NCBI RefSeq assembly: GCF_003334335.1
Contig: NZ_QOWQ01000007.1
Reading direction: 5' to 3' (one strand)
Length of the DNA: 64,000 nucleotides
Origin: Escherichia coli
Lineage (GTDB): Bacteria; Pseudomonadota; Gammaproteobacteria; Enterobacterales; Enterobacteriaceae
Shown: positions 856 through 12,172 of the stretch, piece after piece
Position numbering within the stretch: position 1 is the first letter of the stretch
Layout of the letters: the number at the start of each line of letters is the position of its first letter
Made by a program: the position numbers and the translations under genes
The notes under the pieces: generated by a model
Databases searched by the model: none
The model's input: the letters and a program-made list of their open reading frames with translations, nothing else
What the model was told of the DNA's origin: nothing

Positions 856-2172
856 TCAAGCGCGTTGATTGTCTTTCATCAACAAAGCGGTCATTGCGGA
901 AATCAGACATCCAGCCAGCAAATAAATGGCGACGCTATGCCAGTTCCCGGCAAAGTAAGTGATGAGTGCAGCGGCAATAAAAGGTGTAAATCCACCGCCA
1001 ACCACACTGGCGACCTGATAACCGACTCCAGCACCACTATAGCGATAACTGGCACCAAACATTTCGGTAAACATCGGTTGTTGCACACACACCACCATGT
1101 CATGCGCAATGTTTGCCAGCATTATGGAGAAGAAAACTATCCAGAAAATAGATTGTGCTTCAAGCGCCATAAAGAAAGGAAATGTGCTCAACGTTCCGAT
1201 TAACGCACCTGTGATATAAACCCTGCGGCGACCAAAACGATCGGCAAGCCAGGCAAAACAGGGAATTGTCAAGCAGCTTAATCCACCTACCAGCAAACCA
1301 ATATTGAGGAAAAGTTCGCGCGGTAACCCCATATTCTGGGTTGAATAATTAAGTGCAAAGGCAGTAACGATGTACATCGTCAGCAATTCGCACAGTCGTA
1401 GCGCAATAATCTTCAGGAAAGCACCGGGATGTCGTAACAGCGCTTCGATAACCGGGATGCGTTTTTTCGCGGCAGCTTGATAATGTTGCTGTTGTTCAAA
1501 TTCCGCGGACTCCTCCATGCCATTGCGCACCCACAATGCTCCCAGTACCAGTACGATGCTAAACAGGAAAGGAATGCGCCAGCCCCAGCTTAAAAACTGT
1601 TCGTCAGTCGTCATCATACTGATCAATGAAACCAGTCCGGTTGAAAGCAGTAAACCTACACCGTAGCCAACTTGTACACCGCTACTGTAAAAGGCTTTTT
1701 TATTTTTCGGTGCACTTTCAACGGAAAGCAACGCCGCGCCTCCCCATTCGCCGCCGACGGCAAATCCCTGAATGGCACGCAGTGTCACCAGCAAAATAGG
1801 TGCCCACCACCCAATGGTCGAGAATGAAGGAAGAATACCAATCAAGGCTGTCGCGATGCCCATCATCCAGACGGTCAGCATTAACATGCGCTTACGTCCC
1901 AGTCGGTCGCCAAAGTGACCGAAAATGACACCGCCGAGCGGACGGAAAAGGAATCCGACGCCAAAGGTGGCAAATGCGGCGAGCGTTCCCATCGCCGGGC
2001 TTACTTGCGGGAAAAACTCGCGATTAAACACCAGTGCGGCGGTGATGCCATAGAGTAAAAAATCATACCAGTCGACGACGGCACCAGCGAAGCTGCCTAA
2101 CGCAGCTCGTCGGGCGCGACTTAACGAAAGCGTCCCTTCATCGGGACGAGTGGAGATGAGCGTGGAGTCCAT
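856..2172 (-). CDS. shiA: shikimate/dehydroshikimate MFS transporter
   Basis: 438-aa ORF with multi-TM MFS features, recognised as ShiA; synteny amn-shiA-yeeL. Confidence 0.9.
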   Translation of the reverse strand: MDSTLISTRPDEGTLSLSRARRAALGSFAGAVVDWYDFLLYGITAALVFNREFFPQVSPAMGTLAAFATFGVGFLFRPLGGVIFGHFGDRLGRKRMLMLTVWMMGIATALIGILPSFSTIGWWAPILLVTLRAIQGFAVGGEWGGAALLSVESAPKNKKAFYSSGVQVGYGVGLLLSTGLVSLISMMTTDEQFLSWGWRIPFLFSIVLVLGALWVRNGMEESAEFEQQQHYQAAAKKRIPVIEALLRHPGAFLKIIALRLCELLTMYIVTAFALNYSTQNMGLPRELFLNIGLLVGGLSCLTIPCFAWLADRFGRRRVYITGALIGTLSTFPFFMALEAQSIFWIVFFSIMLANIAHDMVVCVQQPMFTEMFGASYRYSGAGVGYQVASVVGGGFTPFIAAALITYFAGNWHSVAIYLLAGCLISAMTALLMKDNQRA

Positions 2173-2486
2173 AATGATCCTGTTTGTACTGTCTTTTTAT
2201 AATTAGTATGGAAAAGGTAACTCACATTGCCGTCGATCTATAAACGAACCTTATGAGACTACCTCGACAGAGCGCATCTGCAAATGTTTTTATGGCTGAT
2301 TAGCGGCAACATGAAAAATTCGCTGGAAGATGAAAGCGCAGGAGTTGCTGGTGTTGTTTAAGGATTAAGCAGAGGACCCACAGGTTAGAGATATGAAACA
2401 TAAAAGTCCGCATATGCACAAAATGGCACCCTGATGAGTCTGATAGACTGCATTGTATTATAACCAGTAGGGAGGCGAGGTTAGGT

Positions 2487-3539
2487 ATGTTTTTAGCATC
2501 ATTGTTGAGACGTATTGCATTTAGTTACTACGATTATAAAGCTTATAATTTCAATATTGAAAAAACAGACTTTGTTGTCATCCATATTCCCGACCAGATT
2601 GGCGATGCTATGGCCATCTTTCCTGTTATTCGGGCGCTTGAATTGCATAAAATTAAGCATCTTTTAATTGTTACGTCGACAATTAATTTAGAAGTGTTTA
2701 ATGCACTTAAACTTGAAAAGACTAAATTAACATTAGTCACAATGACTATGCAGGATCACGCAACATTAAAAGAAATAAAAGATTTAGCAAAGAACATAAC
2801 ACAGCAATACGGTACGCCGGATCTTTGTATAGAGGCGATGCGTAAAAAGAACCTGAAAACGATGATATTTATCAGTCAGTTGAAAGCAAAAACGAATTTT
2901 CAGGTTGTTGGTTTAACCATGAAGTGCTACTCCTCTTTGTGCAAGAACGCGTCCCGGATGGATCAGAATCTCCGGGCTCCCGTACCCATGACATGGGCAT
3001 TTATGATGCGTGAGGCGGGTTTTCCAGCAGTCAGGCCAATATATGAATTGCCACTAAGTGAGGATGTACTCGATGAGGTGCGCGAGGAAATGCGATCGTT
3101 AGGATCTTACATTGCGCTTAATTTAGAAGGTAGCTCGCAGGAACGTACATTTTCATTATCGATTGCAGAAAATCTAATAGCAAAAATTCAAAGTGAAACA
3201 GATATACCAATAGTGATCGTTCATGGACCAAAAGGGGAAGATAAAGCCAGGGTATTAGTGGATTGTTATAATAATGTCTACCGTTTATCCTTATCACCCT
3301 CGATTAAACGTTCAGCAGCAATCATAAAAGATGCTTATATCGCAATAACTCCTGACACCTCAATATTACATATGGCAAGTGCCTATAATACTCCCGTTGT
3401 TGCAATTTATGCTGATTACAAAACGCGATGGCCCGCAATGGCCGATGTTTCGGAGTCAGTCGTCGTTGGGCAAAAAATTGACAATATAAGTCTGGATGAA
3501 TTCGCAAAGGCATTAAAAAGTGTTTTGGCGAGAATATGA
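2487..3539 (+). CDS. yeeL: family-9 glycosyltransferase (heptosyltransferase-like), apparently intact
   Basis: 350-aa ORF; C-terminal motif ITPDTSILHMASAYNTPVVAIYAD resembles GT9 nucleotide-sugar binding region; GGAGG upstream of ATG; position between shiA and yeeJ; AT-rich. Confidence 0.7.
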   Translation: MFLASLLRRIAFSYYDYKAYNFNIEKTDFVVIHIPDQIGDAMAIFPVIRALELHKIKHLLIVTSTINLEVFNALKLEKTKLTLVTMTMQDHATLKEIKDLAKNITQQYGTPDLCIEAMRKKNLKTMIFISQLKAKTNFQVVGLTMKCYSSLCKNASRMDQNLRAPVPMTWAFMMREAGFPAVRPIYELPLSEDVLDEVREEMRSLGSYIALNLEGSSQERTFSLSIAENLIAKIQSETDIPIVIVHGPKGEDKARVLVDCYNNVYRLSLSPSIKRSAAIIKDAYIAITPDTSILHMASAYNTPVVAIYADYKTRWPAMADVSESVVVGQKIDNISLDEFAKALKSVLARI

Positions 3540-3755
3540 GACAGTACTTATGCATAGTAATGCCGATCTGTTATGAACGGTGGTGTCATCAATACTCTGA
3601 GGCTGGTCAATCATCACAGAAAACCAGCCTTTGGATCAAAGCTGTACTCACCGGATACGATCATAGTCACATCGAACGCGATTCTTGCGGTGCAGCAGTT
3701 TTATTTATTCATTTTCTGTGAGAGAAGGGCAAGCTCTATAGAGGGAATGTAAAAA

Positions 3756-3779
3756 AGAGTGCTCCGAATGGAGCACTCT
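3756..3779 (-). terminator. hairpin terminator at the convergent yeeL/yeeJ 3' ends
   Basis: agagtgctcc-gaat-ggagcactct inverted repeat; T-run follows on minus strand immediately downstream of yeeJ stop. Confidence 0.6.
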
Positions 3780-3800
3780 TTAAGAAATTATAACGGAAAA

Positions 3801-11783
<7,983 letters not shown>

Positions 11784-12096: not shown

Positions 12097-12172
12097 TGGC
12101 TCCTCTGACTGGACTCGAACCAGTGACATACGGATTAACAGTCCGCCGTTCTACCGACTGAACTACAGAGGA
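12097..12172 (-). tRNA. asnT: tRNA-Asn (GUU)
   Basis: Reverse complement matches the tRNA-Asn sequence (TCCTCTGTAGTTCAGTCGGTAGAACGGCGGACTGTTAATCCG...CCA). Confidence 0.95.

Follow-up and report, generated by a model that had tools for sequence, protein, structure and literature searches.

In the aah-aidA and tibC-tibA systems, the transferase gene is located directly upstream of the gene of its substrate and belongs to the same operon. The enzymes of this BAHT family (TibC, Aah) are built on a GT9-related GT-B catalytic core using ADP-heptose as donor, and their hallmarks are an N-terminal beta-barrel (residues 1–97 in TibC), a beta-hairpin thumb, an iron finger formed by four conserved Cys residues in the C-lobe (C339, C342, C358, and C370 in TibC), and assembly into a dodecameric ring (PMC4358343). 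The other described relatives to which a GT9-like protein can be compared are the LPS inner-core heptosyltransferases WaaC (HepI), WaaF (HepII), and WaaQ of CAZy family GT9 (2GT1/2H1H, 1PSW), and the uncharacterised Veillonella GT9 protein 3TOV.

Here, we analyze yeeL, a GT9-like gene found in a 64,000-nucleotide stretch of the Escherichia coli contig NZ_QOWQ01000007.1 (the window). Like the BAHT genes, yeeL adjoins an adhesin gene, yeeJ, and an earlier note on this DNA had proposed YeeL and YeeJ as an enzyme–substrate pair of the Aah/TibC type. This hypothesis turned out to be unsupported, as the co-occurrence of the two genes, the synteny of yeeL homologues, the BAHT hallmarks, and the orientation of the genes all speak against it.

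Results

The yeeL locus

The local gene order is shiA (−), yeeL (+), yeeJ (−), and tRNA-Asn (−), and the features of the region are summarized in Table 1. The earlier note had described yeeL as one uninterrupted ORF of 350 aa that converges with yeeJ, and both statements were borne out, since a single ATG-started frame was found on the strand opposite to that of yeeJ. A GAGG Shine–Dalgarno sequence was recognized by sequence inspection 6 nt 5′ of the ATG, and the start call is right because the N-terminus of YeeL is conserved in all 22 of the 22 aligned homologues. The promoter of yeeL must lie within the divergent intergenic region shared with shiA; scanning for the sigma-70 consensus gave a site count not above that of shuffled sequence, with no convincing site upstream of yeeL. 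On the other side, approximately 260 bp separate yeeL from yeeJ, and this gap holds the terminator of yeeJ, which may act in both directions. The yeeJ gene of the window is the long allele, which is 7,983 nt in strain 1506 (99.9% identical to the window in the segment 2,200–3,800), and contains internal tandem repeats of 609 nt. In other strains, the yersiniabactin island is found on the tRNA-Asn side of yeeJ, which is reduced to a remnant. The genome matches H16–H28 covered query positions 1–1,485, that is, 2,200–3,684 of the window. We regard yeeJ here only as a neighbour of yeeL. A structured RNA in or around yeeL was also considered and dropped, since an Rfam search of positions 2,000–4,000 at E ≤ 0.1 returned zero structured-RNA matches.

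Table 1. Features of the yeeL region, with positions in the window
Feature	Position	Strand	Remarks
shiA	856–2172	−	shikimate transporter; divergent neighbour of yeeL; from ORF and annotation
shiA–yeeL divergent intergenic region	2173–2486		contains GAGG at 2477–2480
yeeL CDS	2487–3539	+	intact, 350 aa plus stop; ATG start; GT-B fold, GT9-like
Asp40 codon, motif IGD	2604–2606	+	aligns with WaaC Asp13
Arg220 codon, GSSQERTF	3144–3146	+	aligns with WaaC Lys192 (diphosphate contact)
Codon 235 of yeeL	3189–3191	+	CAA (Gln) here; TAA in K-12 (from translation)
Donor-binding motif D290-T291-S-I-L-H295	3354–3371	+	equivalent to WaaC D261-T262-G-L-S-H266
3′ flank travelling with yeeL	3540–3684	+	matches end just past ~3684 in genomes without full-length yeeJ
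yeeJ intrinsic terminator	3754–3781	−	12-bp GC-rich hairpin, then T-run
yeeJ, long allele	3801–11783	−	inverse autotransporter adhesin, 2660 aa; ORF and strain 1506 annotation
yeeJ internal tandem repeats	7286–8748
tRNA-Asn	12097–12172	−	beside the yeeJ start

The opening codons of yeeL had been noted as AT-rich and unlike the flanking genes, and this was also found to be the case: the first 60 nt have 28.3% GC, compared with about 50% in the flanks. The GC profile showed that the bias extends over the gene, which has 38.7% GC overall and a GC3 of 35.6%, compared with 50.5% GC in shiA, 50.0% in yeeJ, and 49.4% in the entire window, and only 2.2% of 1,053-nt windows have a GC content as low as that of yeeL. 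The value resembles those of the outer-core genes of the K-12 waa cluster (27–45%).

YeeL as a GT9-like protein

The GT9-type C-terminal motif pointed out in the earlier note was recovered by HMM searches. Pfam PF01075 (Glyco_transf_9) matched residues 228–321 only, that is, the C-terminal domain, with an i-E of 6.9e-7, and the NCBIfam model TIGR02193 (heptosyltransferase I) gave an E-value of 1.2e-9 at 37.8 bits, with a cut-off of 185.3. The scores obtained with the LPS heptosyltransferase I, II, and III equivalogs were all below their cut-offs (37.8/185.3, 19.7/134.6, and 16.9/170.2 bits, respectively), and because they are so far below, YeeL is regarded as GT9-like, but not as an equivalog of WaaC, WaaF, or WaaQ. 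The AlphaFold (AF2) model of YeeL (pLDDT 85.1, pTM 0.83) showed a GT-B fold of two Rossmann domains nearest to solved GT9 structures, and its best Foldseek matches were GT9 3TOV, WaaF, and WaaC. No transmembrane segment was found. The N-terminal (acceptor) domain has a pI of 9.6, similar to that of WaaC (9.8) and WaaF (9.5), and the C-terminal domain is acidic.

Alignment with the WaaC, WaaF, WaaQ, and WaaU sequences taken from the K-12 waa cluster identified eight residues (G39, D40, D112, G178, D290, H295, A299, and P303) that are invariant in the YeeL family as well as in these four E. coli enzymes. Asp40 occupies the place of Asp13 of WaaC, the catalytic base of that enzyme, and Arg220 is invariant in the close YeeL family. 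The equivalence of the D290-T291…H295 motif to that of WaaC was obtained both by HMMER alignment to 2GT1 and by hhalign, and D290, T291, and H295 are invariant. Judged by these equivalents of the catalytic and donor-binding residues of WaaC, YeeL appears to be a functional member of GT9.

Nevertheless, YeeL differs from the described GT9 enzymes in several respects. It is only 11–15% identical to WaaC, WaaF, WaaQ, and 3TOV, and the similarity detectable by sequence is confined to the C-terminal ~90 residues. The N-terminal domain gave zero sequence matches to any characterised GT9 in Pfam, PDB profile, and hhalign searches, and for this reason the acceptor of YeeL could be something quite different. 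A family-specific loop (residues 142–156, modelled at pLDDT <50) carrying the invariant Cys147 and Cys152 distinguishes YeeL from WaaC, WaaF, WaaQ, and 3TOV; Cys114 is likewise invariant in the family. Moreover, unlike the waa genes, yeeL stands alone between shiA and yeeJ, outside the waa/rfa core cluster. In our reading, YeeL is a soluble, two-domain GT-B protein that belongs to a distinct, uncharacterised GT9 subfamily.

With the BAHT enzymes, YeeL shares the GT9-related GT-B core and, by analogy, may share ADP-heptose as donor. In contrast to TibC, it has no four-Cys iron finger in the C-lobe, as its only Cys residues are at positions 114, 147, 152, and 260, without any CxxC and with none after 260, and the N-terminal beta-barrel with the beta-hairpin thumb also has no counterpart in the predicted structure, which opens with a helix at residues 2–13 followed by Rossmann strands and helices. 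TibC was never returned by PDB sequence searches at E ≤ 10, whether the single YeeL sequence or the family profile was used, and structure comparison placed the fold of YeeL nearer to LPS-type GT9 enzymes than to TibC. Among the NCBIfam matches at E ≤ 1, no autotransporter-heptosyltransferase family was present, although this library may include none.

Prevalence of yeeL and its inheritance relative to yeeJ

The segment 2,200–3,800 of the window was matched in 5,288 of 5,426 complete E. coli genomes, with 99.9% identity to strain 1506. The state of yeeL and yeeJ was inspected in 18 of these, a small and partly hand-picked sample, in which 16 genomes were taken at even steps along the similarity ranking and EC958 and SMS-3-5 were chosen deliberately. 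yeeL was intact in 15 of the 18 genomes, and the other three (K-12 MG1655, EBJ001, and CUVET18-789) had a TAA235 allele in common. Accordingly, the intact gene is the majority, wild-type state in E. coli and not an unusual one, so the earlier observation on yeeL is correct but ordinary. The name “glycosyltransferase family 9 protein” is the existing annotation of yeeL in thousands of RefSeq genomes.

The statement in the earlier note that yeeL is a pseudogene in K-12 proved right: the MG1655 gene is flagged “internal stop” in RefSeq, and the lesion is one nonsense change, CAA to TAA at codon 235, rather than a frameshift. The exact K-12 61-mer around this stop was present in 765 of the 4,490 genomes matching that stretch, a proportion that probably overstates the natural frequency of TAA235 because laboratory strains derived from K-12 abound among these genomes. 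We also noticed an IS1 insertion in the yeeL of one genome (match H29), and many truncated YeeL entries among E. coli and Shigella, notably Shigella sonnei. Among 17 distinct yeeL alleles, synonymous changes exceeded the non-synonymous ones several-fold, and mean dN divided by mean dS was ~0.19, which indicates that yeeL is under purifying selection. Across YeeL homologues of 53–73% identity, 100 residues are invariant.

The co-occurrence check in the 18 genomes did not reveal the association with long yeeJ alleles that the proposed pairing implied, as intact yeeL was found with long, short, and absent yeeJ. It was accompanied by an intact long yeeJ in five genomes (1506, serving as a proxy for the window, O157:H7 F6321, D8, 98223, and ST3), by an intact short yeeJ in one (SMS-3-5), and by a frameshifted, stopped, or remnant yeeJ in nine (AZ161, O104:H4, 97.3, CH4796, MS14386, NCTC9112, CT30, GF31, and EC958); the remnant yeeJ of this last class adjoins the yersiniabactin island. 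Conversely, the nonsense yeeL was associated with an intact short yeeJ in K-12 and EBJ001 and with an IS-disrupted yeeJ in CUVET18-789. Thus, yeeJ is broken or a remnant in 9 of the 15 genomes with intact yeeL and is intact in two of the three with nonsense yeeL, which shows that yeeL is inherited independently of yeeJ. In this respect, yeeL differs from the BAHT genes, being neither co-inherited nor co-oriented with the adjacent adhesin gene, and the convergent yeeL and yeeJ are not co-transcribed as are aah-aidA and tibC-tibA.

The published data on YeeJ are in line with this separation. MG1655 YeeJ is surface-displayed and promotes biofilm formation in K-12 hosts (PMC5595812), and since these hosts lack YeeL, YeeJ is functional without it. 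Neither this paper nor the survey of inverse autotransporters (PMC6714894) mentions yeeL or glycosylation, and our literature search found no paper that ties yeeL to yeeJ functionally. In the papers that mention both genes, yeeL appears as a neutral integration site or a table entry.

Homologues in other genera and the origin of yeeL

A search of 5.8 billion proteins found YeeL only in Escherichia/Shigella, Pseudocitrobacter, Enterobacteriaceae bacterium G50, Erwinia, and Rosenbergiella. The neighbourhoods of homologues with 53–73% identity were read to 10 kb, and in the seven contexts outside E. coli proper, no inverse autotransporter or other adhesin was present within this distance. The gene order is amn-shiA-yeeL-mtfA in Pseudocitrobacter, shiA-yeeL-nac-cbl-mtfA in G50, and hchA-yeeL-mtfA-shiA in a divergent Escherichia lineage; the E. 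albertii homologue is located between tonB and yciA, another one between maeB and the eut operon, and those of Erwinia and Rosenbergiella follow a YdeE-like and a NepI-like MFS gene, respectively. shiA is therefore syntenic with yeeL in Pseudocitrobacter and G50, and because yeeL sits at shiA/mtfA without yeeJ in these relatives, its adjacency to yeeJ in E. coli indicates the history of the locus, not function. The E. albertii copy is no simple ortholog, as it is only 66% identical to E. coli YeeL and is found at a different locus.

The horizontal origin suggested in the earlier note is supported by the anomalous GC content and by the patchy spread of the homologues over at least five different chromosomal positions. 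Their GC content is 7–12 points under that of the flanks in Enterobacteriaceae and near the flank GC in Erwinia and Rosenbergiella. A horizontal origin is thus reasonable, but the event is old. In E. coli, yeeL belongs to the core genes, and its synteny extends to Pseudocitrobacter and G50, which fits an old acquisition. Three further associations were examined and dropped. Mobility by plasmids or phages was rejected, as the tblastn search against plasmids returned mislabelled chromosome-sized records and weak generic GT9 matches, but no true plasmid copy of yeeL. A link to MFS transporters was suggested by the MFS genes beside yeeL in E. coli, Erwinia, and Rosenbergiella, but the encoded ShiA, YdeE-like, and NepI-like proteins are mutually unrelated, and no transporter gene lies beside the E. 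albertii or the maeB/eut copy. Membership in a defence system was dropped with no PADLOC match for YeeL or three of its distant relatives.

Distant relatives in glycan loci

A full-library profile search detected distant, uncharacterised full-length relatives scoring 110–290 bits to the YeeL profile, which are 24–35% identical to YeeL, compared with 15% for the Waa enzymes. All five of those with a readable context lie in LPS-core or surface-glycan loci. One is found among GT4, GT9, two GT2, two Wzy_C, WecG, and Bac_transf genes (P0108), another beside Wzy_C, Bac_transf, WecG, GT4, and flippase genes (P0111), and a third one is located 32 nt downstream of a GT8 gene resembling LPS 3-alpha-galactosyltransferase (P0115). 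The fourth has a true WaaF in its neighbourhood (TIGR02195, 496 bits vs. a cut-off of 134.6; P0130), and in the fifth, a YeeL-like domain is naturally fused to an O-antigen-ligase domain of the Wzy_C type (PF04932, 2.4e-13; P0136). YeeL shares with these proteins N-domain motifs such as DY, IGD, DLC, and LxAxxN. However, the relatives are embedded in glycan clusters or fused to a ligase, whereas YeeL proper is solitary and was never seen within a glycan cluster, either in E. coli or in the seven homologue contexts.

Discussion

Considering the fold, the conserved residues, and the relatives, we lean, with a chance only slightly better than even, to the view that YeeL is a cytoplasmic GT9 enzyme, probably dependent on ADP-heptose, that acts on the core of LPS or on a different lipid-linked glycan of the envelope. 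According to this model, YeeL would be a sugar transferase that, by analogy with other GT9 enzymes, most likely takes heptose from ADP-heptose. Its acceptor would be an anionic membrane-associated glycolipid, most likely the core of LPS (inner or outer) or a different lipid-linked glycan of the envelope. The outcome would be a non-essential and strain-variable envelope modification, lost by K-12 via the stop at Q235, and the position of yeeL beside yeeJ would be an accident of locus history. The suggested link to LPS or envelope glycans comes from relatives of 24–35% identity only, and, to our knowledge, the E. coli core structures are accounted for by the enzymes of the waa cluster, with no obvious orphan linkage left. 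The sole experimental lead on yeeL that we found is a screen-level one: in a hypermotility TraDIS screen of the ST131 strain EC958, yeeL insertions are enriched with a logFC of 7.46 (PMC5425062). Since EC958 has an intact yeeL and only a remnant of yeeJ, the role of yeeL in this strain does not involve YeeJ.

The EC958 result bears on the pairing proposed in the earlier note. Spelled out, YeeL would be a dedicated O-heptosyltransferase by which YeeJ is glycosylated while still in the cytoplasm, prior to its export, in the manner of Aah with AIDA-I and TibC with TibA. The adjacency of the genes and the conserved catalytic residues of a GT9-like protein would suit such a role, and so would the intact yeeL in all five genomes of the 18-genome sample that have an intact long yeeJ, but this last coincidence is expected from linkage alone because the genes are ~260 bp apart. 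We regard the proposal as extremely improbable, given the 9 of 15 intact-yeeL genomes without a functional yeeJ, the intact yeeJ with nonsense yeeL in K-12 and EBJ001, the short yeeJ beside the intact yeeL of SMS-3-5, and the seven contexts outside E. coli proper that have no adhesin neighbour. The protein also lacks the beta-barrel and the iron finger, the genes are convergent with yeeJ's own terminator between them, YeeJ works in K-12 (PMC5595812), and glycosylation is unmentioned in the YeeJ papers (PMC5595812, PMC6714894). A broader variant appears very improbable as well. In this variant, YeeL founds a new class of protein heptosyltransferases that has no relation to the BAHT enzymes, and its targets are Ig-like inverse-autotransporter adhesins such as YeeJ, or a different protein of the cell surface or of motility; if it were true, K-12 would be unable to produce the glycosylated proteins found on the surface of wild E. 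coli. That YeeL glycosylates some other protein, such as an adhesin, a flagellar, or an envelope protein, instead of LPS is improbable, too. GT9 does include the protein-modifying BAHT family (PMC4358343), the N-terminal domain of YeeL is unlike the LPS heptosyltransferases by sequence, and the motility phenotype in the TraDIS screen (PMC5425062) would agree with a protein target, but the fold is closer to LPS-type GT9 enzymes than to TibC, the distant relatives are found in glycan-assembly clusters and not beside protein substrates, and no conserved neighbour points to a substrate.

An acceptor that is neither LPS nor protein (such as a small metabolite, enterobacterial common antigen, an intermediate of capsule or colanic acid, or periplasmic glucans) is unlikely, even if it would be compatible with the solitary position of the gene, the divergence of the acceptor domain, and the MFS transporter adjacent in three lineages. 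These transporters (ShiA, YdeE-like, and NepI-like) are unrelated to one another, the E. albertii and maeB/eut copies have no adjacent transporter, and we know of no GT9 enzyme that acts on small molecules. Finally, yeeL may be a dispensable gene drifting toward loss and without current function. The nonsense allele of K-12-like lineages (765 genomes), the IS1 insertion in one genome, the many truncated Shigella and E. coli entries, and a dN/dS of 0.19, which is not especially low, could all be read in this way; still, the gene is intact in most genomes (15/18), 100 residues are invariant across genera, the catalytic residues are kept, synonymous changes outnumber the non-synonymous ones several-fold, and the TraDIS screen gave a phenotype (PMC5425062), so that we find this explanation improbable.

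For the study of YeeJ, the outcome is negative, since the genomes lend no support to a glycosyltransferase dedicated to this adhesin. The point of interest that is left is the loss by K-12 of an uncharacterised GT9 subfamily. YeeL is an uncharacterised member of a known enzyme family, and this interest is modest. Nevertheless, K-12, the reference for LPS and envelope biology, carries a premature stop in a glycosyltransferase gene that is preserved under purifying selection in most wild E. coli. Should YeeL attach a sugar to the core of LPS or to a different envelope glycan, the K-12 envelope would be without a modification present in O157:H7 and ST131 pathogens, and this modification, if it exists, could affect motility, sensitivity to phages or serum, or immune recognition.

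Family-specific loop of YeeL, and distant relatives of the protein

In the region of the family-specific loop of YeeL, Cys147, Cys152, Ser156, Asp159, and Gln160 are invariant, as is Cys114, and the loop itself was modelled with a pLDDT below 50. This segment could constitute a metal or redox site, or it could act as an acceptor-binding lid.

Two of the distant full-length relatives of YeeL lie beside a gene of the same composite type: P0136, in which a Wzy_C (O-antigen-ligase) membrane domain and a YeeL-like GT9 domain are naturally fused, adjoins a GT4-polysaccharide-deacetylase fusion, and such a fusion also adjoins P0130 (locus L034). A second GT9 gene was located two genes away from a third YeeL-like relative, P0108. 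Its product gave the same weak heptosyltransferase I match, restricted to the C-terminal part (E 1.3e-10), and the gene may be a paralogue belonging to the same uncharacterised subfamily.

Several database labels were also encountered that look like errors. The nr name of the YeeL-like protein P0075 (75% identity) is "glutathione transporter [Rattus norvegicus]", a 95.7%-identical yeeL (H48) is assigned to a 1.04-Mb "Klebsiella pneumoniae plasmid", and PLSDB lists several multi-megabase E. coli chromosomes as plasmids.

Coordinates of the features discussed
Feature	Position	Remarks
YeeL family-specific loop	window 2910-2954	residues 142-156
609-nt repeat unit	window 7286-8748	three tandem copies, 68-90% identity; within yeeJ (- strand)
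EC958 yeeL (EC958_2299)	L035:34863-35915	
P0136 gene	L030:1955-4288	
Second GT9 gene near P0108	L031:7750-8811	
yeeO with internal stop	L018:189-1676, L019:2148-3635	

yeeL in a motility screen

In the hypermotility TraDIS screen of ST131 EC958, yeeL was among the 30 genes with enriched Tn5 disruption (logFC 7.46; PMC5425062 Table 1); no individual validation of yeeL was seen in the text consulted.

Variation of yeeJ and the adjacent region

The long and short yeeJ alleles differ by 906 bp (PMC5595812), and the tandem repeats within the gene are presumably the source of this difference. In many strains (O104:H4, ST131 EC958, AZ161, CT30, and GF31), yeeJ is cut down to an approximately 2.8-kb remnant consisting of a beta-domain fragment and a frameshifted Ig-like piece, immediately adjoined by fyuA and the yersiniabactin island. 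Comparison of window 3685-11783 with the corresponding loci (L003, L004, L022, L023, and L035) showed that the match to the window stops at about 3,684.

Two sampled strains, EBJ001 and 98223, carry an internal stop in the MATE efflux gene yeeO, and IS1 or IS100 insertions lie close to the adjacent tRNA-Asn. The tRNA-Asn-rich neighbourhood as a whole appears prone to decay.
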